The notes: a model not told the origin generated them from the sequence alone. Positions 11,360 to 59,937 are shown, numbered from the stretch's first letter. The stretch: 64,000 nt of DNA from Bacteroidota bacterium (GCA_018266765.1 JAFDZU010000005.1:24312-88311), one strand, 5' to 3'. Numbers and translations: made by a program.

Positions 11360-11740
11360 ATGGAAAACCAAACAACAATTACGGGAATAGATATGATAAG
11401 TATCTATGCCGAAGACTATCCTGCATCGTTTGCATTCTACAATGGGCTTCTCGGGCTTGATGATTATTCTCCTATGGGAGATTTCGCTTGTTATTTTCGA
11501 TTGCCCGATGAGCGTGGGATGTATCTTATCGGCAAACGTATTCGAGCGGCACGACCAAAAACAGAAATTCGTACAACATTTTGTTTTGCCGTCGGTTCGG
11601 CTTCGGCAATGTTTGAAAAGCTACGCAATGCCGGGATAGAATGTTTATTTGAAGAGCCAATGGAAATGGGAAATAATTATTATTGGTTCGAGGCGGTTGA
11701 CCCTTCGGGAAATATAATCGAGTTTATAGGCAAGAAATGA
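11360..11740 (+). CDS. VOC family (glyoxalase/bleomycin-resistance-like) protein
   Basis: 126 aa, paired beta-alpha-beta-beta-beta modules (…ISIYAEDYPASFAFYNGLLGL…, …NYYWFEAVDPSGNIIEF…). Confidence 0.6.
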   Translation: MENQTTITGIDMISIYAEDYPASFAFYNGLLGLDDYSPMGDFACYFRLPDERGMYLIGKRIRAARPKTEIRTTFCFAVGSASAMFEKLRNAGIECLFEEPMEMGNNYYWFEAVDPSGNIIEFIGKK

Positions 11741-11804
11741 CAGCCCATTTTTAATGGCTGTGAGTGGAGGCAAATACAACGAATATTGAAACAAAACAAT
11801 GAAA

Positions 11805-11836
11805 CTGCATCAGAATTTCCGATGCAGTTTTTTTAT
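11805..11836 (+). terminator. Rho-independent terminator after the VOC gene
   Basis: ctgcatc-agaatttcc-gatgcag hairpin followed by TTTTTTTATT. Confidence 0.55.
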
Positions 11837-11915
11837 TGGCGAGATGTTGGGTAATTTTGGGTAATGATTCGGACTGTTCAGCTTAGATTTATGTACCAAT
11901 TACTGTTGTTATTTT

Positions 11916-14258
11916 ATGGATGAGAATTTACTTTCTGTGTGTATTATTGCCCGCAATGAAGAAAAGATGCTTGCAGAATGTTTGGAGTCTGTTGCTACAA
12001 TTGCCAATGAAATTATCCTTGTGGATACCGGGTCGACCGATGCTACTCTAAAAATTGCAGAGAACTACGGGTGCAGAATTCTTCATTACGAGTGGAATAA
12101 TAATTTCTCTGATGCACGCAATATTGCTCTTGATGTAGCACAATGTGAGTGGATATTGAGTATTGATTGCGATGAACGACTATTGAATCCCAAAGATGTC
12201 CTGTGGACACTTTCAGCAAGCAAACCCGTTACCGGAGGATATTTGGTAGATGTGCGTTCTGATGCCGCTCGCGCCGATGGAGCAACCGACACCTATTCAT
12301 CCAAACTGTTGCGTTTATTTAGAAATTCACCTGATGTTCGTTTTCAGGGAATTATTCACGAACAGGTTTTAGAATCAATTATCCAACTTGGATTAGAAAT
12401 CGAACATTCTCCCGTAAAACTTTATCACGAAGGATATAATTTATCACCGGAGGCAATGCTCTCCAAGCAAAAAAGGAATCTTACACTACTTGATATGGCA
12501 ATTCAAGAGCGTCCTACGTATGCGTATGCTTATATTAATCGAGCAAAAACGCATCTTGCTTTGGGGAATATCACACCCGCCGACAACGATATACGAAGTG
12601 CATTACACTATGCCGGGAAAAAAAGTATTGTACGTCCGCAAGCGTTATGTTACAGTGCAATTATTGCTTTTCAATCGGGGAATTACGAGCGTGCAATTAC
12701 ACAAGCAAAACAGGCATTGGAAATAATTCCACAACAGGCAATGGCACATTTTATTCTTGGTGAGGCATATTCAGCACTCGGACGCTACACAGAAGCAATC
12801 GAGAATTATACAGCAATGACGTTTGCCCAACAATCTCCCGGCGGACTCGCACAAATTGCCGGAGAATATCACTTACCACCGGAGCAGATTGCGTTTCGTT
12901 TGGGAAGAAGCTATGCCGCACTGCAATTATGGGATGAAGCAGGTGAAGAATTTAAACGTGGTTTAAAATCAAATAGCCACGAACTCGGTTGTCTTGTCGG
13001 AATTGCAAATGTTATGCTACGCAAACAATTATACGATGAAGCCGAGCAGTATTTGCAGCAAGCAGAAAAAATTGCTCCCGAGCGTGAGGATATTCGAGGA
13101 TTTTTGGCACAGATTCAGGTGCAGAGAGCCACCGCATTGCCAAAAATCCCTAAACCACCTTCAGATTTTTACAAAAAAGTAAATCTTTCGGAGAATACTC
13201 ATAAAGAAACCCCTCAAAAGAATACAACCAAAAAGCCGCTCCTCTCGCTCAGTATGATTGTAAAAAATGAAGCGAAAAATCTGGCAGGTTGCCTTGAAAG
13301 TGTTGCCAATATTGCTGATGAAATTATTATACTCGATACAGGTTCGACTGATTCAACAATGGATATTGCTCGTTCATTCAGTGCGGTCGTCTATGAGAAA
13401 GAATGGACGGGAGATTTTGCCGAAGCACGAAATGAATCACTCAAACATTGCACCGGAAAATGGATTCTTTATCTTGACGCTGATGAACGTCTGCATGAAG
13501 CAGCTCAAACGCATTTGCGTCCGATGCTCGATGCCTTACCCGATGAAATTGGTGCGGTTGTGTGTTCTATAATCAGTCCGCACAGGCAGTCCTCTGGCGA
13601 AAGTGAGGTTCATCGAGGCAGTTATCCGCGTATATTTAGGAATTATGGTTATCCGAATATGTATTTTCAAGGGAGGGTACATGAACAAATTACACCATCT
13701 ATTTTGATGCTTGGAGGACAGTTAATCCTGAGTGAAGTAGAAATACTCCATCTCGGATATGACCAGAACCGTGAAGTCATGGAGCAAAAAGTAAAACGCA
13801 ATTATGAATTACTCATCGAACACGTTAAGGAAGAACCCGAGAACAGTTATGCATGGTTTCAACTCGGACAAACACTTGGGCGGATGAATCTTGTGGAACA
13901 ATCTGAACAGGCATTGAAATTAGCAATTGAATTCGGTACGCTTTCTTCTACGATTGGTGCAAGTGCATCAGCGGCGTTGGCTCAGATTGCAGGAAACAGT
14001 AAACGATTCAATGAAGCGTTGATGTGGGCGGATGATTCACTCGAAAAAGCACCGAAACAAGCGTATGCACTTCATTTGAAAGCGTATGCACTTTTGTATC
14101 TTGGGCGAGCGCAAGAAGCAGAAGAAGCGTTTCTCGAAGTAAAGCGGAGAATTGTGGCACAACATGGCGTTCCGCACACAGGTTTTGAAATAGAGATTCC
14201 CGAACAAGCTATCGAACATGGTCTTACAGAAGCACGAAAACTACTTGAAAAATATTAA
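11916..14258 (+). CDS. Tandem family-2 glycosyltransferase with TPR repeats (GT2-TPR-GT2-TPR, 780 aa)
   Basis: Two GT2 cores begin at aa ~5 (LSVCIIARNEEKMLAECLESV…LVDTGSTD…DCDE) and aa ~437 (LSLSMIVKNEAKNLAGCLESV…ILDTGSTD…DADE). Each is followed by TPR-like helical repeats. Confidence 0.75.
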   Translation: MDENLLSVCIIARNEEKMLAECLESVATIANEIILVDTGSTDATLKIAENYGCRILHYEWNNNFSDARNIALDVAQCEWILSIDCDERLLNPKDVLWTLSASKPVTGGYLVDVRSDAARADGATDTYSSKLLRLFRNSPDVRFQGIIHEQVLESIIQLGLEIEHSPVKLYHEGYNLSPEAMLSKQKRNLTLLDMAIQERPTYAYAYINRAKTHLALGNITPADNDIRSALHYAGKKSIVRPQALCYSAIIAFQSGNYERAITQAKQALEIIPQQAMAHFILGEAYSALGRYTEAIENYTAMTFAQQSPGGLAQIAGEYHLPPEQIAFRLGRSYAALQLWDEAGEEFKRGLKSNSHELGCLVGIANVMLRKQLYDEAEQYLQQAEKIAPEREDIRGFLAQIQVQRATALPKIPKPPSDFYKKVNLSENTHKETPQKNTTKKPLLSLSMIVKNEAKNLAGCLESVANIADEIIILDTGSTDSTMDIARSFSAVVYEKEWTGDFAEARNESLKHCTGKWILYLDADERLHEAAQTHLRPMLDALPDEIGAVVCSIISPHRQSSGESEVHRGSYPRIFRNYGYPNMYFQGRVHEQITPSILMLGGQLILSEVEILHLGYDQNREVMEQKVKRNYELLIEHVKEEPENSYAWFQLGQTLGRMNLVEQSEQALKLAIEFGTLSSTIGASASAALAQIAGNSKRFNEALMWADDSLEKAPKQAYALHLKAYALLYLGRAQEAEEAFLEVKRRIVAQHGVPHTGFEIEIPEQAIEHGLTEARKLLEKY

Positions 14259-16122: not shown

Positions 16123-19100
16123 ATGAAAAAACTGTACTCTCTGCTTACTGCTTTGTTGGTAGTAAGTGCGATGTTAATTTCAACGGCAAAAGCCGGGGAA
16201 ATAGATGTCAAAAAATTGCCGTCACTACTTGGTGGTGCGACAAATGCCGGAACAGAGTTCTACTTTTCGTTTCCACCTTGTTACGAAGAAGAATCAGCCG
16301 GTTTTATGAATAGCTGCCGCGTTTTTATTGCCTCCGGAGCAAAACAACTTATTACAGTTGAAATTCCAGGTAAGGGCTATAAAGTAACCAAACTTTGCCA
16401 AGCGAATGATGTTGTTGAATTTGTATTAGGCACCGGTGCTGCTCAGCCATTTTTAAAAGCAGGTAGAGCACAAGCTCCTGTTGAGCAAGTATATCCAGGT
16501 GCTGCAGTTCACGTAACGGCTCGTGCTCCTGTGGTATGCTACGGTGTTACACGCTATAATTATACAAGTGATGGTTTCCTTGCTGTACCTATATCTGCAT
16601 TAGGAAAAGAATATATCGTTGCCGCTTATCCGCAATATACGGCTGTTGGTTCAGGTTATCAACTGACAAGCGAAACCACCATTAGTGCCGCATATGATGA
16701 CACCGAGGTATTTTATGAAATGGGTGGAACAATCGGTTCGGAAACCTCAGGTGGACTAAAGCCCGGAAAAATAACCAGCTTTACAATGAAAAACAAAGGT
16801 GATGTATTATGCTTTTCAAGTAATGGAGATATCCAAGATATTTCAGGAAGCCGTATCACAAGTAGTAAACCTGTCGCTGTTGTATCGGGTAATCAATGCG
16901 CTAATGTTCCTGCAGGCGTTTATGCTTGTGATTATATGTCAGAAATGGAACTTCCTACGTTTACATGGGGAAAAGAATATCACGTAACTCCTTTCTTTGG
17001 TCGTAAGAATAATCCTGTAATTCGTATTTATGCTAAAGAAAAAAATACAAAAGTCTATCGTGATGGTCAAGAATGGCTTGTAATACCTCGTACAACTCGC
17101 AAACTTGATGATGGTTATGTAGAGCGTCGCTCGTCTGACGGCAGTCCACGTGCAGTTGTTATTAGTGCAGATAAGCCAATTTATGTTGAAGAGTTAAATC
17201 CCGGTCAAACGGATGATAATGTTCCGAGTGATCCATTCATGCTTATCCTCTCTCCGCTCGAACAATATCAAAAAGAAATAGTATGGTGTACTCCGGGTGC
17301 TCTCACAAGTAATAATAACTTTAAGAGCCACTATGTTAACTTGGTGTATCAACTAACACCTGATGGAACAATTCCTGATGATTTGGAATTTGCTATATCG
17401 GTAGCCGGAAAATTTGAGTGGAAAAAAGTAAGTGCACGTTTCGGTGGTAGTCCTGGGTATATCTTTAGCGTACCTGTAAATGGTCAAACGTATGCTTGTA
17501 AGCAACTCACATTACCGGGTGACAATGTGTATCGTTTACGTGCGAAAGCACCATTTGCCGCATATGCTTATGGATTCTCTAATTATGATTCTTATGGTAT
17601 GCCTACAAGCGTTGCTTTAGGTAATCTTGAAGTAAAGGATACGGTTAAACCACGCCCTACATGGACATTAAAATGTGATGGTTCTGTTTCCGATGGTTCT
17701 GTTATCGATTATCCGGATGATGACCTTTCACGATCGAACTTAGCACTTATCTACATGGATTTGGATTCGAGTACCAATTATGATTTTAATTATGATTCAA
17801 AACACGAATTTATTGCCGGAACTACCCGTAAAACCGATTGGACTTTGAAAGTAATTGACCCAAGTATTGATGCTCGTGCATTTTTAGTATTTGTAGATCG
17901 CGCAGGAAATGATACGGTTATCGTTATTAATTATAAGGCCTTTAACTTAACGATGGAACCGAATGATTTTCTCAATTACGGGTTGATGAAAAAAGACTCC
18001 GTGCAAACCAAGACTGTTACAATTCGCAATACAGGACCAACACCTCTTACTGTTCATCGTCTTGAATTGAAAGATAACAAACAAGGCTTTACAATTGACC
18101 CAAGTATAAAATTGCCATTTATCATGGCACCGGGTGCAACAAGAGATATTAAGATTACATTTACTAATATTCCGGATGGTCTCTATAATGACCAAATTGG
18201 TATAGGTGATACTTGTGTTTTCTTCTACAAAACTCTTTTGAAAGCAGAAATAGCAAGTCCTGAAATATTAGTTGATGATTATGATTATGGAACTCGCTCG
18301 AAAGGTACACGTACAGTATGGCAACAGCTTTATGTTAAAAATGTCGGGCGTGTGGACTTAGTCGTTACAGGTGATGACCATTTAACATCAATTACAGGTG
18401 GAAATTTTGAACCAATTGGTTGGGCACAAACATATCCTGTTAAGATTCCTCCCGGCCAAAAAATTGGATTCCAAGTAGATTTTGTACCTCCTGCAGTTGG
18501 ATCATTCACGAATACAATTACATTCTCAAGTGATGCTAAGGTTGGTGATAGTTTATCGATTATAAAAGGCAAAGCTGTAGAACCTGGTTTGATTGCAACT
18601 CCTTATGACTGGAAGCGCAAAAGAATTAACCCTACCGCTCCTTATGATGGAACAATTGACCTTCAAAACGATGGTTCTGCGCCTGTTACAATTCAAAGTG
18701 CAAATGGAACAGACCCGAATTTTATTGTTGATTTAAATCAATTTACAAATCTGACTCTTGCAGCCGGAGCAAAGAAAACATTCCCTGTACAATTCAATCC
18801 TCTGACAACTGGTGATCATACTGTAACAATTAACTTTGTTACCACTACAGCGGGTGTTTCTGCTTCGTCAGAATTAAGAGGAACAGGTATAATCGGACAT
18901 TTGAAAACAACAGACATAGATTTCGGTACTACTGTTGTAGGTACTTTGATTTCAAATCGCCGTCAATATAAAGTTGAATGTGAAAAATGGGCATTTGAAG
19001 ATTCAGTTACAATTACTGATTTAGTTGCATCCGTCGGAGCAATTAATCCTGATTTGACAACATTTAGTGCTAATGGTTTCCGTTATGATAAACAAATAAT

Positions 19101-20313
19101 CGGTTTGCCAAAAACTTTATTACCCGGTGCAAGTTTTGTTGTTGATATATGTGAATTTTTAGCACCATTACAAGGTAATCATGCATCAGCACTTACAACT
19201 GTGAGTGATGCCGAAGCTCAAGTAACATCAAATTGGACAGGTATCGGTAGAGTAGATTTTGTTAAAGTTCTTGATTTAGTCGCTAATGGTGGTCGTGTTG
19301 ATAATATTTGTGTCGGTACAGAAGGATTTATTGACTGTACTATTAAAAACAAAGGAAACAGTGCATTTTTGATTGACAGTGTTGCGTTAGATCCAGATGC
19401 TCAATTTAGCATCGTAGTTCCTGCAACACCTAACGTACCATTCCCATTATTAACAACATCTGATGTTTCAGTCAGAATTAGCTTTAAGCCATCAGCAACG
19501 GGAACGAAAACAATTAAACTTCATATATTTAGTTCTGAATTAGGACGCGATACTACAGTTGAAATTACTGGTGTTGGTGTTGATTATTCAAGTGTTGCTA
19601 CTACAAAAACGCTTACTAATATTGCAATCGGAAGTAAAGTAACAGTTCCGATTACATTAAAAGATCCAATTGTAGCATCTGCTAATGTTAATAAACTAAC
19701 AGTATCGGTAACCTATGACGGTCGTTTAATTGCTCCTTCATTAGCAGAATTTACTGCCGGTGCCGCAGCGGCGGGGTTTAAAGTAACAAATGCAAAAGAA
19801 GTAACAAAAGGAACGAACGGTTTACTTACGTTCGACTTTGAGAGCACAGGTTCAATCCTAACTGCTCCGGGCGATATTATTAATATGGTGTTCTTTGTTT
19901 ATTTACCAAATGGTATTGACTTTACAGCAATTACGCCAACGATTACAGTGGTTAACAGTCAATGTGCGAAAATTACGGCTGAGCCGGGTAAAATACAAGT
20001 AAGTCCTACATGTGCATTTAACTTGCGTAAAGTTGACAGCAAAAATGTAATGTATAGTATGACTGCAATTAGCCCGAATCCAATTGGTGCTAATGGTGCT
20101 GAAGTAGAGTTTTCAGTTGGCTTGAAAGCAATGACTGAACTCTCTCTCTATAACAGCACAGGTACAAAAGTAGCAGTTATAGCAGTCGGTTCTTTAGAGC
20201 CGGGTAGTTATAGCGTAAAAGTTCCCGTAGAAGGTTTAAGCTCAGGAACATATATGTTACGTCTAAATTCCGGTCAGTATTCTGAAGAACAGCAAGTAGT
20301 TATTGTCAAGTAA
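16123..20313 (+). CDS. T9SS-secreted large surface protein (1396 aa)
   Basis: Cleavable signal peptide (MKKLYSLLTALLVVSAMLISTAKA). N-terminal ~500 aa resembles the IgGFc-binding-protein N-terminal domain (GTEFYFSFPP…, repeated beta-helix-like strands). Middle region has many Ig-like (DUF1573/ASH-type) repeats. C-terminal ~80 aa is a typical T9SS sorting domain (…LSLYNSTGTKVAVI…SGTYMLRLNSGQYSEEQQVVIVK). Strong SD AAGGAG precedes the start. Confidence 0.75.
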   Translation: MKKLYSLLTALLVVSAMLISTAKAGEIDVKKLPSLLGGATNAGTEFYFSFPPCYEEESAGFMNSCRVFIASGAKQLITVEIPGKGYKVTKLCQANDVVEFVLGTGAAQPFLKAGRAQAPVEQVYPGAAVHVTARAPVVCYGVTRYNYTSDGFLAVPISALGKEYIVAAYPQYTAVGSGYQLTSETTISAAYDDTEVFYEMGGTIGSETSGGLKPGKITSFTMKNKGDVLCFSSNGDIQDISGSRITSSKPVAVVSGNQCANVPAGVYACDYMSEMELPTFTWGKEYHVTPFFGRKNNPVIRIYAKEKNTKVYRDGQEWLVIPRTTRKLDDGYVERRSSDGSPRAVVISADKPIYVEELNPGQTDDNVPSDPFMLILSPLEQYQKEIVWCTPGALTSNNNFKSHYVNLVYQLTPDGTIPDDLEFAISVAGKFEWKKVSARFGGSPGYIFSVPVNGQTYACKQLTLPGDNVYRLRAKAPFAAYAYGFSNYDSYGMPTSVALGNLEVKDTVKPRPTWTLKCDGSVSDGSVIDYPDDDLSRSNLALIYMDLDSSTNYDFNYDSKHEFIAGTTRKTDWTLKVIDPSIDARAFLVFVDRAGNDTVIVINYKAFNLTMEPNDFLNYGLMKKDSVQTKTVTIRNTGPTPLTVHRLELKDNKQGFTIDPSIKLPFIMAPGATRDIKITFTNIPDGLYNDQIGIGDTCVFFYKTLLKAEIASPEILVDDYDYGTRSKGTRTVWQQLYVKNVGRVDLVVTGDDHLTSITGGNFEPIGWAQTYPVKIPPGQKIGFQVDFVPPAVGSFTNTITFSSDAKVGDSLSIIKGKAVEPGLIATPYDWKRKRINPTAPYDGTIDLQNDGSAPVTIQSANGTDPNFIVDLNQFTNLTLAAGAKKTFPVQFNPLTTGDHTVTINFVTTTAGVSASSELRGTGIIGHLKTTDIDFGTTVVGTLISNRRQYKVECEKWAFEDSVTITDLVASVGAINPDLTTFSANGFRYDKQIIGLPKTLLPGASFVVDICEFLAPLQGNHASALTTVSDAEAQVTSNWTGIGRVDFVKVLDLVANGGRVDNICVGTEGFIDCTIKNKGNSAFLIDSVALDPDAQFSIVVPATPNVPFPLLTTSDVSVRISFKPSATGTKTIKLHIFSSELGRDTTVEITGVGVDYSSVATTKTLTNIAIGSKVTVPITLKDPIVASANVNKLTVSVTYDGRLIAPSLAEFTAGAAAAGFKVTNAKEVTKGTNGLLTFDFESTGSILTAPGDIINMVFFVYLPNGIDFTAITPTITVVNSQCAKITAEPGKIQVSPTCAFNLRKVDSKNVMYSMTAISPNPIGANGAEVEFSVGLKAMTELSLYNSTGTKVAVIAVGSLEPGSYSVKVPVEGLSSGTYMLRLNSGQYSEEQQVVIVK

Positions 20314-23384: not shown

Positions 23385-24353
23385 ATGAGCCATAATCACG
23401 ACCACCACGGGCATAACCATCAACATGGACATGACCATCATCATCATCATGCAGAAATTGCCAATGATTCACGTGCTCTAAAAATTGCAATGGCATGCAC
23501 TGCAAGCATTTTTGTAGCTCAAGTAGTTGGTGGGTTTTTGTCTCATTCACTTGCGTTACTTTCCGATGCAGGACACATGCTTGCTGATGTCGGAGCACTT
23601 TTAATTGCATTTTTGGCTCTTAAATTTTATTCACGTTCTCAGTCTGATATAGAAAAATTACAACAATATACCTTTGGATTTCGTAGGATTGAAGTATTAG
23701 CGGCTTTGGTGAATGGTGTCGTACTTGTGGGTATTTGTGGGTTCTTGATGTATGAAGCAATCGAGCGATTCTTTCATCCACAGGAAGTCTTATCGCTTCA
23801 AATGATTTTTGTTGCTACAATAGGCTTGATTGCTAACGGAATTAGTGCGCTTGTCTTGTATAAATCACATCATATCAGCACACGCAGTGCATATCTTCAC
23901 GTATTGACAGATTTACTTTCATCAGTGGCGGTAATAGTTGGTGGTGTAGCAATTTATTATACTCATTTATCGTGGATTGATTCTGTACTTTCCTTTGGTA
24001 TTTCGTTATTTATAATTCGGAGTGCGCTGAGATTAGTGCGTTCATCCGGAATTCTTTTGATGGATTCAGCTCCTCCAATGGTTTCAAAAGATGTTATCGA
24101 ACAAGCATTGATGGAAACCGATGGAGTGGTTAGCGTCCATGATATTCACATTTGGCAGAATAGTCCGGGTGAAAATACCGTAAGTGCTCACATTGTAATA
24201 TCTTCGGATTCACTTCATGATGAAATTCTAAAGACACTTTGTTCGATGCTGAAAGAAAAATTTTCATTAGTTCACTCAACGATTCAAATAGAATCTCAAA
24301 ACTATTCTGAACAGCAACATTGCGACTCGTGCCAACTCCAAAATCAGTTGTAA
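23385..24353 (+). CDS. Cation diffusion facilitator transporter (CzcD/ZitB-like) with His-rich N-terminal tail
   Basis: N-terminus MSHNHDHHGHNHQHGHDHHHHH. CDF signature …SLALLSDAGHMLAD… and six TM segments. C-terminal cytoplasmic domain. Confidence 0.85.
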   Translation: MSHNHDHHGHNHQHGHDHHHHHAEIANDSRALKIAMACTASIFVAQVVGGFLSHSLALLSDAGHMLADVGALLIAFLALKFYSRSQSDIEKLQQYTFGFRRIEVLAALVNGVVLVGICGFLMYEAIERFFHPQEVLSLQMIFVATIGLIANGISALVLYKSHHISTRSAYLHVLTDLLSSVAVIVGGVAIYYTHLSWIDSVLSFGISLFIIRSALRLVRSSGILLMDSAPPMVSKDVIEQALMETDGVVSVHDIHIWQNSPGENTVSAHIVISSDSLHDEILKTLCSMLKEKFSLVHSTIQIESQNYSEQQHCDSCQLQNQL

Positions 24354-24371: not shown

Positions 24372-25682
24372 TTAAGATACATCATTGAACCAAACTCTGC
24401 ACACAAATTCTTCTCCGCTTCCAAAACGAAATGGTATGCTATAAATTTGTACCCGTCGAATTTCTGCTGTTTGCTTTTTCCAAGGTTCTTTGTTTACTTT
24501 TGCCGAGTAATTAAATTTTTTGAGAATTTCGAGGAATATCGTTGTAATTGCATTGAGGGTTTCTTGAAATATCTGGTTATTGTGGGCATTGGCAATATAA
24601 TTTGGGTCTCCACGAAGTTGAGCCAAATTATTGAAATCTACTACCATACCTTCAATACCAATTGTGATATCAATCTTTCCTTCTTTCACATAAACATTAA
24701 TAGTTTCAGAGTGTTCATTTGAGACAATATTAGCTACTTTATCTTCAAGGATTGCAACATTTTCAGTAATGAATGAAGGTAATTCAGTAATAAGTGCGGC
24801 TTGGATTTTTTCACTAAACTGATTAGTAACCACATGTCTGAAGGCACCTTCTTTCGATTCATCTTTGAATATTTTTTTAAGTAAAGATTCAATAAATAAT
24901 TTTTGTACAAAAGTACGAAGAATAATTCCTTGGAAGAATGTTTTTTCGTCCTCACGAAGTGTGTTGCGTTCGGAGCAAATAAGTATTTCAAGCGGCCGTT
25001 CACGTTTGAGTTGTCGTAGCTTTTTAGCTAAAAATTTTCGATTTTGAAGTCCGGTCCCCTCGGGTAAGTTTTCAGAAATACAGACATCGGTGATAAGGTC
25101 ATTTTCTTGGGCAAGTCGGTATGCCTCGCTACCATCTTCAGCAATTATTACTTCACAACGGTTACCAATCATCGAAGTAAAGAACATTCTAAAAGTAGGG
25201 TCATCATCGACAAGTAGGATTTTATGATTTTTTTCAATCGTGATATCGGTGACTTTAGGTAATTTAGGTTTGCCTTTCTGGTCACGAATAGCAAGTAACA
25301 ATTTACCAATTCGGATATAAGCAGTATCAATATCAATGGGTTTGAGGAGGTATCCCTCTATTCCCAACTGAGTAAGGCGCATGACAATAGATTTTTCTTG
25401 GATAGCAGAAGTTATAATAACAGGAGTTTCTGTATGCGATGGATCATTGCGTAGGGCTTCGAGCATTTCCATCCCATTCATAATAGGCATGCGCAAATCG
25501 AGAAATATTGCATCAGGAGAATCTTGACTTATTCGTTCTAATGCATCAAGCCCATTTTCGGCTTCTACTACATTGCAAAAAGGAAACCTTTTTGAGACAA
25601 AGCGAGATAGAATTGTCCTGCTTAATCGTTCATCATCTACAATTAACACTTTCATTGCATTAAGTATCGGCAAATAATTCAT
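24372..25682 (-). CDS. Response regulator with two tandem receiver (REC) domains and a ~150-aa C-terminal domain of unknown function
   Basis: REC1: VLIVDDE…D56-like LDLRMP…K in LLKPID. REC2: ILLVDDDP…IILRTF…. C-terminal ~150 aa (…ITELPSFITENVAILEDKV…VCRVWFNDVS) matches no family I can recognise. Confidence 0.7.
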   Translation of the reverse strand: MNYLPILNAMKVLIVDDERLSRTILSRFVSKRFPFCNVVEAENGLDALERISQDSPDAIFLDLRMPIMNGMEMLEALRNDPSHTETPVIITSAIQEKSIVMRLTQLGIEGYLLKPIDIDTAYIRIGKLLLAIRDQKGKPKLPKVTDITIEKNHKILLVDDDPTFRMFFTSMIGNRCEVIIAEDGSEAYRLAQENDLITDVCISENLPEGTGLQNRKFLAKKLRQLKRERPLEILICSERNTLREDEKTFFQGIILRTFVQKLFIESLLKKIFKDESKEGAFRHVVTNQFSEKIQAALITELPSFITENVAILEDKVANIVSNEHSETINVYVKEGKIDITIGIEGMVVDFNNLAQLRGDPNYIANAHNNQIFQETLNAITTIFLEILKKFNYSAKVNKEPWKKQTAEIRRVQIYSIPFRFGSGEEFVCRVWFNDVS

Positions 25683-25787
25683 GAAATCACTACGGAATAA
25701 TCAATTAAATAGAGTTGCAACTTACAAGAAAATACGGACTTGACATAGGACAAATTCGTAATTCTATTACTTTTTTATCTAATTCAT

Positions 25788-25827
25788 CAAAAAAACCCGC
25801 CTAATTAAAGTTATCAGACGGGTTTTA
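25788..25827 (-). terminator. Rho-independent terminator downstream of the P5C dehydrogenase gene
   Basis: Minus strand: aaacccgtct-…-aggcgggttt hairpin followed by TTTTTTT. Confidence 0.55.
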
Positions 25828-25871
25828 GGGTAAGTTATAATACTTATCTATCAATTTGCAAGTGTCATCTA

Positions 25872-27422
25872 TTACTTTTTAATCTTTTCGCTGATAGATT
25901 TAGCTTGGAGGAATAATAGGAGATAATCTCTTCCGCCTGCCTTTGAATCTGTACCGCTCATATTAAACCCACCAAAAGGATTTCCGCCCACTAAAGCGCC
26001 GGTACATTTACGGTTCAAGTATAAATTCCCTACGAAAAACTCCTCACGTGCTTTGGCAAGTTTCTCTTTGTTATCGGTATAAACTGCACCGGTTAAGCCG
26101 TAAATAGTATTATTAGCTATTGAAAGTCCATCCTCAAAATTTTCAGATTTGATAACTGCTAAAACAGGTCCAAAGATCTCTTCTTGCGAGATTCGTGCCA
26201 TCGGACTAATATCAGCAAATACTGTTGGTTGGATATAATATCCATTTTTTCCTTCTACTTTGTAGCCACCTGTGAGTAATCTTCCTTCTTTTTTGCCAAT
26301 TTCAATATAATTCAAAATTGAGCGTTCAGCTTTTGCTGATACAACAGGTCCACAGAATGTGTTATCAAGCGGATTTCCTACTTGAAGTTTTTCAACAGCT
26401 ACTTTTAGCTTCTCTGTAAATTCTTCGTAAATCTTAGAATCTACAATTACCCGTGAGCACGCAGAACATTTTTGCCCTTGGAAGCCGAATGCCGCCGCTA
26501 CAACGCCCTGAACTGCTACATCTATATTAGTTTCCGAATCAACTACTATCGAGTCTTTACCGCCCATTTCTGCCACTACTCGCTTAATCCAAATCTGGCC
26601 TTTCATTGTTTTTGCGGCAAGTTCGTTAATTCTCAAACCAACTTCCATCGAACCTGTAAATGAAATAAAACGAGTTTTTGGATGAGTTACTAAATAATCG
26701 CCAGCTTCTGCGCCACTTGCCACAAGGAAATTTAGAACACCGTCCGGCAAACCAACCTCGCGCATAATTTCTGTAAATATCCACCCCATCATTGGCGAAT
26801 CTGACGAAGGTTTCACGATAACCGGATTACCGCAAACAATTGCAGCCGCGCTCATTCCGGCTAAAATTGCAAACGGAAAATTCCATGGCGGAATAATAAC
26901 CCCGACTCCAAGCGGTGTATAAATCATTTCATTGTTTTCGCCTGCAATCGGTACAATCGGCTGTTTACCGCCATAACGCAATGCTTCTCGTCCGTAAAAA
27001 TCAAGAAAATCAATTGCTTCACAAGTATCAGCATCAGCTTCAAGATAGTTTTTTCCTACTTCGGAAATCATCCACGCATTAATTTCCAAACGTCGTTCGC
27101 GCATTACATTTGCGGCTTTGAAAAGAAATTCAGCGCGTGTTTCCATCGGCACTTTTTTCCACGACTCAAATGCTGTTAGTGCCGCTTGCATTGCTTTTTC
27201 AGCATCATCTTTGCCTGATTTTTGGAATATTCCAATTGTTTCATCAAGGTTCGATGGATTTATTGACCGTGTTTTATCGGTAGTTATTACCTTTTCACCA
27301 TTGATAATATTTGGGTATTCTTTGCCAAACTCTGTTCGTACTTTGTCTAATATTTGGCGTTGCTTTTGTGCTATTTCCGGATTTGAGAAGTCTAGATACA
27401 CTTCATTTGCAAATTCTTTCAT
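25872..27422 (-). CDS. L-glutamate gamma-semialdehyde (1-pyrroline-5-carboxylate) dehydrogenase, RocA/PruA type
   Basis: 516 aa aldehyde dehydrogenase: catalytic Cys in …GQKCSACSR…, EMGGK motif, C-terminal GGRDYLLLFLQAK typical of single-domain P5CDH. Confidence 0.8.
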   Translation of the reverse strand: MKEFANEVYLDFSNPEIAQKQRQILDKVRTEFGKEYPNIINGEKVITTDKTRSINPSNLDETIGIFQKSGKDDAEKAMQAALTAFESWKKVPMETRAEFLFKAANVMRERRLEINAWMISEVGKNYLEADADTCEAIDFLDFYGREALRYGGKQPIVPIAGENNEMIYTPLGVGVIIPPWNFPFAILAGMSAAAIVCGNPVIVKPSSDSPMMGWIFTEIMREVGLPDGVLNFLVASGAEAGDYLVTHPKTRFISFTGSMEVGLRINELAAKTMKGQIWIKRVVAEMGGKDSIVVDSETNIDVAVQGVVAAAFGFQGQKCSACSRVIVDSKIYEEFTEKLKVAVEKLQVGNPLDNTFCGPVVSAKAERSILNYIEIGKKEGRLLTGGYKVEGKNGYYIQPTVFADISPMARISQEEIFGPVLAVIKSENFEDGLSIANNTIYGLTGAVYTDNKEKLAKAREEFFVGNLYLNRKCTGALVGGNPFGGFNMSGTDSKAGGRDYLLLFLQAKSISEKIKK

Positions 27423-34666: not shown

Positions 34667-37600
34667 TTATTTGCTAAGAGTCATCTTACCATTTAATACG
34701 TGATTACCTGCTGATAAACGATAGATATATGTACCTGATGCTACAGGATTACCTTGAGCATCTGTACCATTCCAAGTAACTGAATGTGAACCTGAAGTTT
34801 GCTCAGCGTTTATCAAAGTAGTAACTACATTACCGAATACATCAATGATATCTAATTTAACCATAGATTTATCTTGCAATGCAAACTCTATGTTTGTTGA
34901 AGTCGAGAATGGATTTGGATTGCTTTGTCCCAAAGCAACTTCTGTATTTCCATCGAAAGTAAATTCGAGGATATCAGAAATCTGCTTACAAGACTCAGTT
35001 CCGTTCATATCAACTTGCATCAAACGATATTGATACGTATTGCCAAGACGAACACTATTGTCAGTATAGCTATAATCATTTTCGGCTGAGGTTGTTCCGT
35101 GTCCACCAATAAAGATAATTGATGACCACTGACCTTCAGTTCCTACACCACCGATTGCTCGACGTTCTACATGGAAACCGCTATTATTTTCTTCAGAAGC
35201 GGTATGCCAGAAGAGATCTACTCCACTTTGACGTTTTTGACCATCAAAATAGGTTAGTTCTACAGGAGTAAGACAGTTTTCGTCGAACAGAGGTGTTTCA
35301 GAGTATGTTTTATCTCCTAAGTATGGACGAAGCATCGGAAGCCATGTACCACGTGACCGTGTTTGATAACCTGCGATTGATGCACCACCTGCATGGTTAA
35401 GATGACCAAATGCAGGATTTCCAATACTTGGCATGAATTGATTCCATGTTCCTGAGAATCTTGTATTCTCATAAGCGAACAAATTATTATTAATCAATTG
35501 TTTGAACCCATTGTCTTGACGGAAACGTTTGTCAAGATTAAGATGAGTACCGCTTAATCCGTAAGTACCTGGAGGTAAATCACTATAATTTGTTATAATC
35601 TGACCTACACGTGCTTTTGAAGCACCTAAACAGTATCCATCAAATCCTAATTGAGCACATGAAATCCAATAATCACCCGGCTCAAGAACAATAGGTTTAT
35701 CAAGTAAATATGTAGTATATTCATCATAGAACAAATCTTTGCGAACATCATCATATCCTCTTTGACGTATCAACGCTTTTTCACCCGGTTTCAAGAAGAT
35801 AGGATTAGCACCCGGCTGACCACCGGCATCTTTATAGATGGAGAACGAAATTGGGTCAGGGCTTTGATTCAAACCGCCAAACCATGTCTGGAATCCTTTA
35901 ATAGAATCTTGTCTGATAAGCGTAAATTTAACTGCTATCTGTCCGGAACCGTTACCTGCTTCAGGACCGAAAGCATATCTTCCGTCAACAATATCTCCAC
36001 CTGCGTGTGGCCATAGACCTTCAGCATATCCGAACATATTTAGACCTTTTCCTACAAACTGACGGCCAAGTGCTGCAGTTGCAAAATCAGGTACATCATT
36101 TCTTGCGGCTGTAGGATCATATGCAAACACAGGACCATAGTTCAAAGTAAAAATACTATAATTTAAGTCATTAGTATTATCTAAATCGCCACCTTGTACT
36201 GTTGCTCTACCTTCAATAACGTAACGGCCAGGAGGTGATCTACGCGCATTCCAAGCAGGAACACTCGAATTAATTTCTTGTCCGGGATATATAGCAGGAA
36301 GAGGCGTAGAATTACAATAGACTGCATTAACTTGTTTAGTAATTTCATCTGAATTAAGCCATTGTTCTTGGTAAATTCTTACTTTAACAGTTACTGTTGC
36401 AGAAACTTTATTAGAATTATTTGAAATTTTAAATCTAATAGGCATTGTCGTTGCCTGACTTGCCGGTGTAACTGTATATGGCCAATTGACTTCACAAAGT
36501 TCCATTTCGACATCGGCACTTTCTTGTGAATAGATTAAGTGTACATTATCAATAAAGAAATCATCATCATCATCCTTAGGTTGAAGAGGTGTAGATTGAT
36601 TATTAACAGCTGAAACACGGAATCTGAATCTAAAGTTTTTAGCACCTAAACTTGGAGAATAAATTAATGAATCTGGCAAGAAGAAGAAGTATTTACTATA
36701 TTCCCAATCTTTACCATCATCATATTTATTTGCACGTAAACCTTGAGCTGCAGTCAAAGCTGAATCTTTACTTATATAATCAACAGTAGCCGGTTTGTTT
36801 TCCAAGAAACCACGACGTAAACCACCTGCTCCAAAGAGCGTCAAGACAGGATTACCGGTAATTGTCTGACCATCGCGACGTTTGTGAATATTCCATGTAA
36901 TATCTGAAGTTGATTGTTTTGCAATATTTTCAATTTCATCCGCACTTGGACGAGCAAATTCAAGATAGAATTCATCCGGTGCAGGTCCGTATGTTGTAGT
37001 TCCACCTGGAGGGTCATTATAAAGTACTCTTGGTTCTGGACCAACAAGTAGGGCATCAGACCATCCACGTCCTAAGTCACCATTCGCTTTACCGGTTCTT
37101 TGGTACGAGAAGGAAAGAACTGCATTTTTTGTTGGGCGATTTGGAAGATCTCTGACATCAATAGGGAATGAACGTAATTCATCACCTTTTGCAGGTGTTG
37201 TTGGTTCATCACCACTTAATGTCTTCCGATTTAACCTAATAACCGGAGAATTAACTCTTTGATTTGCTTTATTTGCAGCTGGATACGATCCACGTGGAGG
37301 AACCGGATTATAGGTATTTTCTTCACCGTCAGATACTTCACCATCTATATTAACCCATTTTAATACTGATGGCATAGCAGTTCCATTTATTATATGGAAT
37401 TGTGTAACATCATCATTAAATCCGTCACTATTCAAAAATGACAAACGACGCATAACAAAAATGTCTTGTTTTACTGTATCATCAAATGGCCATTGGTCAC
37501 CTAAACTTCTAAATAAAGTATCTACGGGCTCAGCTATAACTAAAGCTCTTAGACGACCGATATGGAAATCTATCAACTCATTTGGCTGAAATGCGGGGAA

Positions 37601-39421
37601 ATTAACTCTTACCATTCCATAAGGAGGAACTCCATTTAATGGACAAGAGCCATTATTATAAGGGAAATTTCCACCTGTAGAAGGAACCGTAAATGAAGAG
37701 CCACTAACATAATCAACAGTGGCAGTTGTACCAGGGCAAAAACCTTGTAAACAACTCATGCCAATTGGCACTGATTCTGAATACGCGGTTTGTCCAGTAG
37801 CTTGGTTAACAATACGGAAACGAGTTCTAAAATTAACATCCTGTTTTGAATAATTAACACCAGCTGGGCGTAGTGGATTTGCTAAACCAGGACCTTGTAT
37901 ATCATTCGTTAAGTTTTGGAAAACTGCTACAGGGCGAATTGCACCTAATTGAGCATGTCCGGCAAGCAATTCTATATTTGTTCCCGTTATGACTCTGGTA
38001 TAAGCATCTAAACTAGCAGTTGGATTTAACTCTCTACCAAGATAAGTAGGCTGACCAACAACTCTTAACACGTTCTTCCATTGTTTAAATCGTATAGCCA
38101 ATCCTGTCTGAGGCGTAGAAGCACCGGAACCAACTGGTCCGGCAACATTCACAGAGTTTCCTGGGAAATCTGCATTTGCCAAATATTGAGTAGATTGAGC
38201 ATAAGAGGTTAAATATTCCGGCTGACTGAGATTTGAAGAACAATTAGGGTTTTTATATGAATAATGACGTGCATTACCTTTTACACCGATCGTCGAATTC
38301 ATTCGTAGTAATTCACTTGCACCTATTGGAATATTACTTTTTACAATACTTCCTGCCAAACTTCTATAATAAATATAAACAGAACTGTCAGACTCATCAA
38401 GAGTTACCTGGAAGTCAATAAGTATTCTTCTGTCATCTTTGGGGAATGTTTCCGTTCCTGCACGAGTTGTCTTCGCCCCCATAAGGGATACGTTTTTATA
38501 AAAAATAACCAATCTACGTGTTCCATCAGGATTATCCGCACGTTTGAACCATACTTGACCTTTATCAGCATCATCAAGATTTTGATGTTGTGATAATTGT
38601 AAGTCAGTCCATAAAGCAGCAATAATCGGCGAAAATCTCATATCGTTTGGAACACCTGTTAAACTCGTGTTTGCAGGGTTTCTAATACCACCTTTAGGTG
38701 TTGCAGTATTTCCAGTTGCTACATACTGATAACCATAATCATCTGCTGTATTGTCACTCAATCCATCACCTATTTTTGGACGGGCTACATAAGAACTGGC
38801 ATCCACATTTTCTTCACGGTAGAAGTTATATGAATCAGACGAACCTGCAGGAATTGTTCTATTGCCTGAAGCATCATAACTGTAGCGGCGATTCGAAAGA
38901 GCAATCAGGCCATTCGTAGAGACATAAAAACTATCATATCTTACACCATTAAAGAAGAAAGGAAAGCCAATTTTAATTGGACCTGCGATTGCATCGTCAG
39001 TCGAATCAGTTAAAGCATTCGGGTTTCTAAAAAACATTTTGCCGTTATCGGCTAAATCTTGCGCATCGACAATTTGATTTGGTCCGGACACAATCCTTTT
39101 CCATTTAACAACTTCCGCTGGATCTGTCTCGGAATCTTTATCTAAATACGCTTTGAATAAGTCCGGACGCCATGCGTCACCGGCCTCATCATCACTATCC
39201 ACAATATAATAACCAGTCGAAACCGCTGGCTGAGTTTTTGCCGGACGGTTATTATTGACAGTATTAATTGCCGGGAATGCAGTGAATGGCTGAGGGAAAG
39301 AACCTTTAGCAAGATCTGCTTTACGCAGTACCTCGGCTCCACCATCTTTAGCATTTTCTGCTGCGAATGCTGTGCTTACGACACAAATGGCAATCGCAAA
39401 AAGTAGCAGTGTACTCTTCAT
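34667..39421 (-). CDS. T9SS-secreted very large protein (1584 aa) with FN3-like module before the C-terminal sorting domain; remaining ~1400 aa unassigned
   Basis: Signal peptide MKSTLLLFAIAICVVSTAFA. Near the C-terminus an FN3-like segment (…ELTYFDGQKRQSGVDLFWHTASEENNSGFHVERR…YQYRLMQVDMNGTE…) precedes the T9SS sorting domain (…NPNPFSTSTNIEFAL…SGTYIYRLSAGNHVLNGKMTLSK). Confidence 0.7.
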   Translation of the reverse strand: MKSTLLLFAIAICVVSTAFAAENAKDGGAEVLRKADLAKGSFPQPFTAFPAINTVNNNRPAKTQPAVSTGYYIVDSDDEAGDAWRPDLFKAYLDKDSETDPAEVVKWKRIVSGPNQIVDAQDLADNGKMFFRNPNALTDSTDDAIAGPIKIGFPFFFNGVRYDSFYVSTNGLIALSNRRYSYDASGNRTIPAGSSDSYNFYREENVDASSYVARPKIGDGLSDNTADDYGYQYVATGNTATPKGGIRNPANTSLTGVPNDMRFSPIIAALWTDLQLSQHQNLDDADKGQVWFKRADNPDGTRRLVIFYKNVSLMGAKTTRAGTETFPKDDRRILIDFQVTLDESDSSVYIYYRSLAGSIVKSNIPIGASELLRMNSTIGVKGNARHYSYKNPNCSSNLSQPEYLTSYAQSTQYLANADFPGNSVNVAGPVGSGASTPQTGLAIRFKQWKNVLRVVGQPTYLGRELNPTASLDAYTRVITGTNIELLAGHAQLGAIRPVAVFQNLTNDIQGPGLANPLRPAGVNYSKQDVNFRTRFRIVNQATGQTAYSESVPIGMSCLQGFCPGTTATVDYVSGSSFTVPSTGGNFPYNNGSCPLNGVPPYGMVRVNFPAFQPNELIDFHIGRLRALVIAEPVDTLFRSLGDQWPFDDTVKQDIFVMRRLSFLNSDGFNDDVTQFHIINGTAMPSVLKWVNIDGEVSDGEENTYNPVPPRGSYPAANKANQRVNSPVIRLNRKTLSGDEPTTPAKGDELRSFPIDVRDLPNRPTKNAVLSFSYQRTGKANGDLGRGWSDALLVGPEPRVLYNDPPGGTTTYGPAPDEFYLEFARPSADEIENIAKQSTSDITWNIHKRRDGQTITGNPVLTLFGAGGLRRGFLENKPATVDYISKDSALTAAQGLRANKYDDGKDWEYSKYFFFLPDSLIYSPSLGAKNFRFRFRVSAVNNQSTPLQPKDDDDDFFIDNVHLIYSQESADVEMELCEVNWPYTVTPASQATTMPIRFKISNNSNKVSATVTVKVRIYQEQWLNSDEITKQVNAVYCNSTPLPAIYPGQEINSSVPAWNARRSPPGRYVIEGRATVQGGDLDNTNDLNYSIFTLNYGPVFAYDPTAARNDVPDFATAALGRQFVGKGLNMFGYAEGLWPHAGGDIVDGRYAFGPEAGNGSGQIAVKFTLIRQDSIKGFQTWFGGLNQSPDPISFSIYKDAGGQPGANPIFLKPGEKALIRQRGYDDVRKDLFYDEYTTYLLDKPIVLEPGDYWISCAQLGFDGYCLGASKARVGQIITNYSDLPPGTYGLSGTHLNLDKRFRQDNGFKQLINNNLFAYENTRFSGTWNQFMPSIGNPAFGHLNHAGGASIAGYQTRSRGTWLPMLRPYLGDKTYSETPLFDENCLTPVELTYFDGQKRQSGVDLFWHTASEENNSGFHVERRAIGGVGTEGQWSSIIFIGGHGTTSAENDYSYTDNSVRLGNTYQYRLMQVDMNGTESCKQISDILEFTFDGNTEVALGQSNPNPFSTSTNIEFALQDKSMVKLDIIDVFGNVVTTLINAEQTSGSHSVTWNGTDAQGNPVASGTYIYRLSAGNHVLNGKMTLSK

Positions 39422-44643: not shown

Positions 44644-47079
44644 ATGACTCCTTCTGTACGTTTTTTATTAATAGAACTTCTTGCAATTTTTATTTGGATT
44701 CTTGGGTTTTCTCATATTTGGCAGAAACCTGCATTACCATTTGAATTACGCGGAGCAATGACCATTACTGCACCCGATTCGAGTGTGGCAACTGTACTTC
44801 GCGTAGGAGATACTCTCAAAATAATAGACAGCATACGAATAACTTCTCGTGATGAAGCAGAGTTTATTCTCGACCGACACGCTGTTGGTGACACTGTAAT
44901 GCTACGAGTAATGGGAACGATTTCACCCGAACCATTTGTTGCCTCGGTAATAGTGAAGCGATTTTATTCACCGATGTATTTTGTAATAATACTCGTGGGT
45001 GCCGGTATATTTCTTGGGCTTGCTATAATTGTACGCCGCCGCCGCCCTATTGGGGTAGATATTCAAATATTCCATACTTTGTGTATTGCTATGGGAAGTT
45101 TGATAATGACAACCTCAGGACGATATACGATGCCGCTTGGGATTGGCTATCTTGTTTCGGCTGTCTTTTATGCTTCGTATTCGTTTTCGCCTGTTTTGCT
45201 TCTGCTTTTCAGCCGAATATTCCCAACAGACCGCCGCGCGGAAACTCCCCAATTACAAAGCAGAGCCATTCAAATTGCATCGGTATTAACATTCTTGCTT
45301 GTTGTTTCATTTATAACTGCTGCTGTAAGTACCTCTATCACTTTCTATAAGATTCATTTTGTTCTCTTTCGTTTGTGTCAATTATGGTTTGCAGGAATTG
45401 TGGTTCTCACAATTATAAGTTTCTATTTGGCTTACAAATCAGTAACTCTCGAATCGGAACGTCGAAAAATTCTTTGGATTGCTACCGGTGCGAGTATCAG
45501 CGCCTTAGGATTTGTCGGGTTATGGCAATTGCCTCAGTTTATCATCGGTCATCCAATTTTACCGGAAACGATAATTATTCTACTTGCTACAATTGCGCCG
45601 ATTTCATTTGCAATTGCTCTTGTTCGGTATAGAATAATGGACATAACATTGCTTATCAACCGAAGTGCAGTTTATGCTATTGTTTCGGCGATTGCCTTGC
45701 TTGTTTATGCTATTATCTTTGGAATTGTTCTGAAAATTAGCGGAGTTCTCAATGCAAATACCACATTTATGGTAACAGCCGTTGCCGTTATTATCAATGT
45801 AGCATTATTTGCTCCCGCAAAGGGATTCGTTCAGAATTTTATAGACAAAAAGTTCTTTCGAGTGCAATATCATTACCGGAATGTCCAGCGTGCGATGAGC
45901 GAAAAAATAACTGTAGCAGTCAGCACGGGTGATTTAGGTCAATTTTTGGTGCAGGCACTCAATACTATTCTCGCAGTCGAACGCATCGGTGTATTTATTC
46001 GTGATGGCGACGAAATGGAGCTTACGGCGCAAATCGGCTTAGACAAGTTACTCCAATTTGGTACTGACCGAAGTGCATTGCATACCATGGCTGAAACAAA
46101 AAGAATTATTGGCTTGCCGCAATTTTTCGAGCCGGAAGTCGAAATTGAAATCGGTGATGAAGAGTTGCTTCGGAGTTTTGGATTAGTATTGCTTTATCCT
46201 ATGCTTTCGCCAACCGGTGAACTATTGGGATGTATTATTATTGGCGAAAAAAAATCGGGTGCACGGTTTACCGGCGAAGATTATGATGTAATTAGTGGTG
46301 CTGTCCATGAATCATGCGTTGGATTAGAACATATAGCCCTGCTTCGGCAAATGGCTGTGCAACAAGCAGAATCACAACGTCTGCACGAATTGAATCTGAT
46401 GAAATCCTATTTTGTTTCGGGTGTTTCACACGAACTAAAAACTCCGCTGACGGCAATTCGTATGTTTAGCGAAATGCTCCGCACTCGCACCGAAAGCGCA
46501 AAAGGGCAAGAATATTTAGATATTATCGAAGGTGAAAGCTCACGTCTTTCGCGTTTGATAGATACAGTCTTGGATTTTGCACAAGTTGAGCGCGGCATCA
46601 AGGAATACCGAAAAAATCCTGTTGAACTTAATTCTATAGTAAGAAATGTACTATCGGTAATGCGCTATGAAATTGAAAAAGAAGGGTTTATTATCGAAAC
46701 ACGTATTGCAACCGGCGAGCTTAACTTTACTGCCGATGCCGATGCAATTGCTGAAGCAGTGATGAATCTCATCGCCAATGCAATGAAGTATTCACAGCAC
46801 GACCATTCCATTCTGCTCTCTACATTTCAGAATGATGACTTTGTGTGTATGAGTGTGGAGGACAAAGGAATCGGGATTCCGACCGAATCATTCGAGACGA
46901 TATTCAAACCGTTTGTTCGACTGCAAGACGAGGCAACTCAGCGAGTCGGTGGTGCCGGCTTAGGGCTTGCACTTGTAAAACATATTACCGAAAGTCATGG
47001 TGGGCATGTCGAACTCGAAAGCACCGTAGGAACCGGCTCGAAATTCACCCTCTGGTTTGCGGCAAATAGTGCTAAATAA
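44644..47079 (+). CDS. Membrane sensor histidine kinase: PDZ-like sensor segment, multi-TM domain, GAF-like domain, HisKA + HATPase_c
   Basis: H-box …SGVSHELKTPLTAI…. N/G1/G2 boxes …NLIANAMKYS…, …DKGIGIP…, …GGAGLGLALV…. Around 7 TM helices upstream. PDZ-like GDTLKIID…GDTVMLRV near the N-terminus. Confidence 0.85.
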   Translation: MTPSVRFLLIELLAIFIWILGFSHIWQKPALPFELRGAMTITAPDSSVATVLRVGDTLKIIDSIRITSRDEAEFILDRHAVGDTVMLRVMGTISPEPFVASVIVKRFYSPMYFVIILVGAGIFLGLAIIVRRRRPIGVDIQIFHTLCIAMGSLIMTTSGRYTMPLGIGYLVSAVFYASYSFSPVLLLLFSRIFPTDRRAETPQLQSRAIQIASVLTFLLVVSFITAAVSTSITFYKIHFVLFRLCQLWFAGIVVLTIISFYLAYKSVTLESERRKILWIATGASISALGFVGLWQLPQFIIGHPILPETIIILLATIAPISFAIALVRYRIMDITLLINRSAVYAIVSAIALLVYAIIFGIVLKISGVLNANTTFMVTAVAVIINVALFAPAKGFVQNFIDKKFFRVQYHYRNVQRAMSEKITVAVSTGDLGQFLVQALNTILAVERIGVFIRDGDEMELTAQIGLDKLLQFGTDRSALHTMAETKRIIGLPQFFEPEVEIEIGDEELLRSFGLVLLYPMLSPTGELLGCIIIGEKKSGARFTGEDYDVISGAVHESCVGLEHIALLRQMAVQQAESQRLHELNLMKSYFVSGVSHELKTPLTAIRMFSEMLRTRTESAKGQEYLDIIEGESSRLSRLIDTVLDFAQVERGIKEYRKNPVELNSIVRNVLSVMRYEIEKEGFIIETRIATGELNFTADADAIAEAVMNLIANAMKYSQHDHSILLSTFQNDDFVCMSVEDKGIGIPTESFETIFKPFVRLQDEATQRVGGAGLGLALVKHITESHGGHVELESTVGTGSKFTLWFAANSAK

Positions 47080-59835: not shown

Positions 59836-59937
59836 ATAAACAAATCAAACAATCTTGTAAAATCAAATAAATATAATAATCAGACAGAGGAAATTTTCTA
59901 ATGTATTTCCTTAATCAACAACCAAATTATTGAAATT

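Follow-up and report, generated by a model that had tools for sequence, protein, structure and literature searches.

An orphan response regulator with an Asp-to-Glu pseudo-receiver and a putative, highly diverged CheX-like C-terminal domain in a Bacteroidota genome

The stretch of DNA analysed here, 64,000 nucleotides from a Bacteroidota bacterium (GCA_018266765.1, JAFDZU010000005.1:24312-88311; 'the window'), carries on its minus strand, at 24372..25682, a complete coding sequence of 436 amino acids (aa) followed by a stop codon at 24372..24374. An identical protein is deposited in GenBank as MBS1536403.1, under the title "MAG: response regulator [Bacteroidota bacterium]" (MAG, metagenome-assembled genome). 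An initial annotation of the DNA had described this gene as a dual-receiver response regulator with an unassigned C-terminal domain, and its position was given correctly. Since relatives keep the full length down to 53% identity, the open reading frame (ORF) is, by comparison, a real gene. An alternative start at Met10 (25653..25655) would give a 427-aa product, and the cluster representative P0006 (427 aa) begins there. Our analysis indicates that the protein is probably a rare, lineage-restricted regulator consisting of a receiver domain (REC), a pseudo-receiver and a degenerate CheX-like domain, and that its tail probably does not represent a domain of a new kind.

The neighbouring genes are those named in the initial annotation. 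A CDF transporter gene on the plus strand (23385..24353) converges on the 3' end of the regulator gene with a gap of 18 bp, and a gene for L-glutamate gamma-semialdehyde (P5C) dehydrogenase (25872..27422) is found 189 bp upstream, on the regulator's own strand. The intergenic region between the dehydrogenase and regulator genes (25683..25871, minus strand, 189 bp) presumably carries the regulator gene's own promoter; a scan of the gene's flanks for sigma-70-type promoters and terminators gave no signal above chance. The 64-kb window encodes three histidine kinases (44644..47079, 48742..51735 and 62097..63683), none of which adjoins the regulator gene, and the earlier observation that there is no adjacent cognate kinase is therefore upheld.

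The first domain, REC1 (residues 11-125; 25308..25652, on the minus strand like all parts of the gene below), is a canonical receiver. On the whole protein, Pfam PF00072 scored 115.6 bits against a cut-off of 30.2, with the best stretch at residues 12-120, and a REC hidden Markov model (HMM), built in this analysis from about 100 canonical receivers and used for column assignment, gave REC1 151 bits. Alignments to Escherichia coli CheY and to the REC HMM place the signature residues at D16, D17, the acceptor D62 (25497..25499), S92 and K114. By these alignments, REC1 has all of the residues required for phosphorylation of Asp62. It is followed by a Lys- and Pro-rich linker (residues 126-152; 25227..25307), delimited from the family alignment and from the predicted local distance difference test (pLDDT) score, which is very low here in the full-length AlphaFold2 (AF2) model. 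The linker varies in length across the family, with Kapaibacterium-type members having 8-10 additional residues.

The second domain, REC2 (residues 153-271; 24870..25226), is receiver-like but degenerate. Scanned by itself it scored 31.6 bits with the Pfam receiver model, against the cut-off of 30.2, and it matched solved CheY structures at E=0.006 (phmmer). The N-terminal acidic pair, D159/D160 in this protein, is present and is retained across the family. In the HMM alignment, the acceptor column is occupied by Glu204 (25071..25073; 'CIS-E-NLPE' against 'VIS-D-WNMP' in CheY), and the column of the conserved Lys (CheY K109) by Arg256 (24915..24917; 'GIILRTF' against 'GYVVKPF'). The Thr column holds S237 here and S, T or A across the family. 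In an alignment of 17 sequences, the acceptor column was Glu in all family members but P0136, which has Asp, and the Lys column was Arg in every family member, while the out-group proteins P0139, P0143 and P0199 retain Lys. Pairwise phmmer alignments to CheY structures put either S203 or E204 at the acceptor position, depending on the placement of a one-residue gap. D199 is the closest Asp, five residues before Glu204 at the start of strand beta3; it reached the acceptor position only in a MAFFT alignment with a 4-residue insertion. REC2 is thus, as judged from these alignments, a conserved Asp-to-Glu pseudo-receiver, and since Glu204 replaces the acceptor Asp and Arg256 replaces the Lys, it cannot be a normal second phosphorylation site. 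The set of DD…D…K residues that the initial annotation had ascribed to both receivers is complete in REC1 (D16, D17, D62, K114) and is reduced in REC2 to D159/D160. The protein therefore becomes a one-site regulator with a pseudo-receiver, rather than the dual-receiver hub first supposed.

The remainder of the protein, residues 272-436 (~165 aa; 24375..24869), forms a C-terminal alpha/beta domain, placed by hhalign and by the AF2 topology. Whether used singly or as a profile, it had no match at E<=10 in Pfam, in NCBIfam or among PDB sequences, and the view that the domain is in no curated library was borne out. When 1.84 billion cluster representatives were searched exhaustively with HMMER, nothing was recovered beyond the 50% cluster to which the domain itself belongs, one fragment and one spurious match. 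Three further loci came from 185,579 species genomes that were scanned, and 241 million metagenome records yielded another six sequences, all within the known range of divergence and with no new intermediates toward CheX. Over all of the public data searched, about 20 sequences carry the domain, defining a very small family confined to bacteria of Ignavibacteriota/Kapabacteria type. The MAGs concerned are labelled Ignavibacteria/Ignavibacteriota, Kapaibacterium or unclassified Bacteroidota, with one labelled Chitinophagaceae; full-length relatives are 82-86% identical in three GTDB representative MAGs, and range down to 53% identity in Kapaibacterium-type MAGs. P0138 is a distant but true member (its hhalign score of 26.6 exceeds the shuffle maximum, 19.2, and was reached by 0/60 shuffles) which is without the NEHxE segment. 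As for the degenerate HATPase and HPt domains that the initial annotation had named as examples of a refutation, and other known outputs, the protein had no match to HATPase_c, HisKA or HPt at E<=10, and no GGDEF was found by Pfam. A degenerate HATPase, with 'ETLNAIT' read as the N-box and 'FGSG' as the G1 box, was rejected, there being no HMM signal and 'GSG' lying 12 residues before the end of the protein, which leaves no space for a G2 box or lid.

A word-index search with the C-terminal domain alone recovered only its own cluster, and it was the full-length query that exposed intermediates. These are proteins of 421-452 aa with a REC1 and a degenerate middle receiver, 29-38% identical to the query; full-length relatives at 30-38% identity also match it in the length of the C-terminus. 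The C-terminus of one of them, P0199, passes the Pfam CheX model PF13690 (37.6 bits against a 27-bit cut-off) and has the canonical S-x3-E-x2-N, while those of the Melioribacteraceae proteins P0139-P0142 group with P0199 by BLAST and are of a D-x2-N type. All five place their C-terminal domain in the same position as the regulator does, and like the regulator family they have no nearby kinase. They differ in that their C-termini are recognisably CheX-like and the Lys of the middle domain is kept, P0199 having the acceptor Asp as well. The largest cluster among the distant matches of the full-length query was of another sort, triple-REC proteins with no other domain (P0158, P0162 and about 24 other metagenome relatives, many of 420-450 aa).

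A CheX-like intermediate profile was made from the C-termini of P0139-P0142, P0199, P0143, P0160 and P0176. The regulator family together with P0138 scored 32.2 against this profile in hhalign (P=1.6e-4), over 96 collinear columns covering residues ~329-427. Four types of control fell well below this value: column shuffles gave 11.9 ± 2.3 (maximum 19.5), reversed profiles 11-12.5, a REC decoy 14-16, and 82 real 165-aa segments from other window proteins a maximum of 21.3. The window domain alone scored 20.6 against the CheX-like profile and a Kapaibacterium-type member 20.4, with a decoy maximum of 17.6; genuine Thermotoga maritima CheX scored 22.8. In turn, the CheX-like group scored 31.7 (P=2e-4; controls <=17) against a set of 118 genuine CheX sequences, gathered with a T. 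maritima query whose sequence was confirmed by comparison with 1SQU/1XKO. Two profile-profile steps, each with P~2e-4, therefore join the regulator tail to CheX/CheC/FliY (PF13690, PF04509; 1XKO/1SQU, 3HZH). These proteins resemble the tail in size (about 155-165 aa), and their ExxN helix and hairpin Pro align with it. In the unconstrained hhalign alignment, E374 and N377 of the regulator coincide with the intermediates' (D/E)xxN, and they align with E91 and N94 of T. maritima CheX. The difference in arrangement is that CheX stands alone, whereas the regulator tail is fused behind two receiver-type domains and lies outside a che operon.

Several results weigh against a CheX-like assignment and against the roles that we propose below. 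The direct hhalign comparison of the family with CheX is at noise level (P=0.13-0.25), its score being matched by 6/30 and 15/60 column shuffles, and no direct HMM or HH signal is seen. The window domain and three other members had no match to Pfam CheX/CheC (PF13690, PF04509) at E<=10, nor did the Kapaibacterium-type P0132 at E<=0.1. HH-suite itself assigns the key link a probability of just 50%, the intermediate profile pools sequences that are mutually related at only P~1e-3 to 1e-4, and the scores of individual intermediates against the family fall among those of the decoys. CheX was absent from the results of fold searches with the low-confidence model of the domain (pLDDT 54), which gave instead weak matches to nucleotidyltransferase/Rel palms and glyoxalase modules. 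Finally, the adaptor role of REC2 and the binding role of the tail, to be described below, would rest on analogy. Taking both sides together, we lean towards the C-terminal domain being descended from the CheC/CheX-like fold that occupies the same position in the out-group proteins, and we put this no more strongly because of the 50% probability, the weak intermediate profile and the single-sequence scores.

AF2 gave a pLDDT of 43 for the whole protein from its single sequence, and a pLDDT of 54 with a predicted template modelling score (pTM) of 0.47 for the isolated domain from a four-sequence alignment; both models were rejected as too weak for a fold assignment. The predicted order of secondary structure in the latter, a1-b1-b2-b3-a2-a3-b-b in about 165 aa, agrees with that of the CheX fold.

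The residues under selection in the domain are distinct from the CheX catalytic set. The CheX motif tested was D/S-x3-E-x2-N-x(20-22)-P, in which the S, E, N and P are each 100% invariant among the 118 genuine CheX sequences. In the window protein, E374-x2-N377-x22-P400 is present, with E374-T-L-N377 (24552..24563; found by regular expression and by hhalign) aligned to the catalytic ExxN, and Q370 is at the D/S position. The E374-x2-N377 and P400 residues are retained in most of the protein's closest clade. Across the regulator family, however, the motif is not conserved: among 16 members, position 374 is E, T, G, K or S, position 377 is N, K, R, S or T (K/R/S/T in 9/16) and position 400 is P, S, A or M (S/A/M in 5/16). 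P0128, a relative that is 83% identical, has Thr at position 374. These residues were rejected as proof of CheX: they vary within the family and are already broken in close relatives, and the spacer from N to P is 20 in T. maritima CheX, not 22. Because the same regular expression also matches inside REC1 by chance, we took the motif as a lead only.

In contrast to the motif, other polar residues of the domain are invariant. The block P417-F-R-x-G/A-S422-G-E-E-F-x-C428 ... N433-D434 in the C-terminal hairpin (24381..24434) is invariant in 16/16 members, and the family alignment and residue counts add R282-H283, E323-H324-x-E326 and G335-K336-x-D338 (24669..24839). The hairpin gives the best local hhalign match of the domain to CheX, and its motif is common to three groups: it reads IPFRFGSGEEFV in this protein, LPFRTQKGQKFL in proteins of the Melioribacter type and LPISVFSEEDF in CheX. 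The regulator family and CheX both conserve a hairpin Pro and an acidic residue, which in the 118 CheX sequences are P136 and D/E144. The C-terminal domain is thus conserved and under purifying selection. Because the invariant polar residues differ from the CheX dyad, the pattern of conservation argues that selection acts on the domain and not on the dyad, and we conclude with moderate confidence that the catalytic Glu and Asn have lost selection in the regulator family. Canonical CheY-P phosphatase activity is therefore unlikely to be the function that maintains the family, given that the dyad, though kept here, is unconserved in it.

The best explanation of the locus, which we hold with about even confidence, is an orphan response regulator with a REC1, a pseudo-REC and a diverged CheX-like domain, belonging to a small family of Ignavibacteriota/Kapabacteria type. 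In the proposed mechanism, an unlinked histidine kinase would phosphorylate Asp62, and this would shift the packing of REC1 against REC2, the latter acting as an adaptor by analogy with the second receiver of PleD. The repacking may then alter dimerisation or the exposure of the CheX-like domain. The tail itself would mainly bind proteins, most plausibly a receiver (its own or that of another regulator), rather than being an obligate CheY-P phosphatase. The 'novel output domain' of the initial annotation survives in part, since the domain is an orphan by sequence; its link through intermediates to the CheC/CheX-like superfamily, of moderate confidence, speaks against novelty. The profile comparisons make it likelier that the tail is a known type of output or partner domain in strongly diverged form than that it is a domain of a new type. 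A remote CheX/CheC-like domain is a testable assignment for a region that is blank in Pfam, NCBIfam and PDB sequences.

Known systems offer partial precedents for this arrangement. PleD has a REC and an unphosphorylated adaptor receiver before its output domain, and the regulator resembles it in layout alone, with a phosphorylatable REC1, an acceptor-less second receiver and an output. Residues 11-240 of the regulator align to the NCBIfam PleD model. PleD differs in its GGDEF output, which is absent from the regulator, where the adaptor role of REC2 is a conjecture. The middle domain of FliM has a CheC-like fold without the phosphatase residues and works by protein-protein contacts, making it a precedent for a non-catalytic domain of CheC/CheX fold, by likeness of fold role and not of sequence; FliM differs in being a flagellar switch component rather than a response regulator. 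If the CheX descent is true, the phosphatase fold can shed its catalytic residues while under strong selection elsewhere, as in the FliM/CheC comparison. Plant pseudo-response regulators have Glu at the phospho-acceptor position of a receiver-like domain. Their lineage and context are unrelated, and the pseudo-receiver of the regulator is internal, behind a true receiver. Literature searches on REC-CheX fusions found nothing specific. The practical consequences are modest, the organisms being uncultured.

The alternative that best withstands the data, though we regard it as rather improbable, is that the C-terminal domain is unrelated to CheX, a lineage-specific new domain having replaced the ancestral CheX-like one. 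Such a domain would have its own function; the invariant His, Glu, Asp and Cys might, for instance, bind a ligand or a metal or carry out catalysis. Its orphan status, with its own cluster alone among 1.84 billion representatives and only three and six additions from the genome and metagenome scans, is what this would predict, as are the blank Pfam, NCBIfam and PDB searches and the weak fold matches to palms and glyoxalase modules in place of CheX. The invariant R282-H283, E323-H324-E326, K336-D338, S422-G-E-E-F-x-C428 and N433-D434 are likewise not the CheX catalytic set. Opposed to this, the profile-profile link to the CheX-like intermediates stands well above all four control types, and the size, the position and the predicted order of secondary structure fit the CheX-like domain of the out-group.

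A related proposal, to which we give a low probability, is that the tail has the CheX fold but, in place of the phosphatase dyad, has acquired a strictly conserved polar constellation of its own (R282-H283, E323-H324-E326, K336-D338, E424-E425-C428 and N433-D434), becoming a neofunctionalised output. Were the proposal true, these residues could form, for example, a metal or small-ligand site or a new catalytic site, and a chemotaxis-phosphatase fold would have been recruited outside chemotaxis. The output would belong to an orphan regulator found repeatedly beside cation transporters, the His-rich CDF protein here and P-type ATPases in three other lineages.

Slightly less probable again is that the tail of this protein is still an active CheX-type phosphatase, using E374 and N377 on a CheY-like regulator or on its own REC1, in which case it would act as a built-in reset or phosphate sink. 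The retention of E374-x2-N377 and P400 here and in most of the closest clade, and their alignment with the catalytic E, N and P of CheX, would fit this, as would a flagellin gene 2 kb from the regulator copy of a related lineage. But the D/S of the invariant CheX set is absent (Q370), the positions vary within the family as given above (T at 374 in P0128, G/K/S in others), the chance match in REC1 and the spacer of 20 in T. maritima devalue the motif, and there are no che genes near the members examined or among the scanned window ORFs. The idea of a dual-receiver phosphorelay hub, both RECs accepting phosphoryl groups, has in its favour the two tandem receiver-like domains found by Pfam, the acidic pair D159/D160 and the acceptor-column Asp of the family member P0136 and the out-group P0199, but it fails because REC2 has Glu204 for the acceptor Asp, here and in all but one of the aligned full-length family members, the absence of that Asp being a refutation named in advance in the initial annotation, and with Arg in the Lys column, a Thr column that varies between S, T and A, and no HPt or kinase domain detected in the protein, we consider it very improbable.

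The genomic context of the family was compared across lineages. In the seven neighbourhoods examined, no kinase, che or flagellar switch gene adjoined any member, and no che gene was found among the window ORFs scanned against Pfam/NCBIfam. Three of the loci (L002-L004) share synteny with the window, which reflects merely close kinship, the neighbouring genes being 69-94% identical. More distant members have other neighbours, and the one recurrent gene is that for the upstream aldehyde (P5C) dehydrogenase, found in two clades: it is common to the 55%-identical Kapaibacterium-type clade and not to the 66% clade. At the Kapaibacterium-type locus L005 (9645..10383 and 11365..12309), a 57-aa ORF and the genes for ribosomal proteins L31 and S18 come after the regulator, the L31 being without CxxC pairs (the Zn-independent form), and it is this copy that has the flagellin gene 2 kb away.

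Cation transporters recur near the family. The convergent CDF protein of the window (23385..24353, plus strand) is ZitB-like with a His-rich N-terminus, MSHNHDHHGHNHQHGHDHHHHH, and P-type cation ATPases (Cation_ATPase_N/C type) lie downstream of the regulator at three other loci (L001, 2730..5306; L007, 13906..16485; L013, 9457..12036). Because orientation and distance vary, we treat this recurrence as a lead only, and it may be coincidence. A second CDF cation efflux gene (Cation_efflux plus ZT_dimer; 55734..56762, minus strand) is found elsewhere in the window, adjoining genes for an ABC ATPase and a Na+/H+ exchanger.

The kinase at 48742..51735 (plus strand) is a 997-aa hybrid histidine kinase with CHASE3, several PAS, HisKA and HATPase_c domains and a C-terminal receiver, and could be a partner of the orphan regulator, as one of the three candidates in the window. 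That at 62097..63683 comes after a cluster on the plus strand (59254..61813) of an ECF-type sigma factor gene (Sigma70_r2/r4_2) and ORFs of 406 and 225 aa without a Pfam match, which could be a sigma/anti-sigma module.

Also encoded in the window are two very large predicted proteins. One (16123..20313, plus strand) has 1396 aa and 72% identity to its counterpart in L004; the other (34667..39421, minus strand) has 1584 aa and a sole, C-terminal match, to a FlgD_ig-like domain, which by its similarity could mark a secretion-sorting domain. A tRNA gene at 959..1040 (minus strand) was the sole Rfam match above the gathering score in the window.

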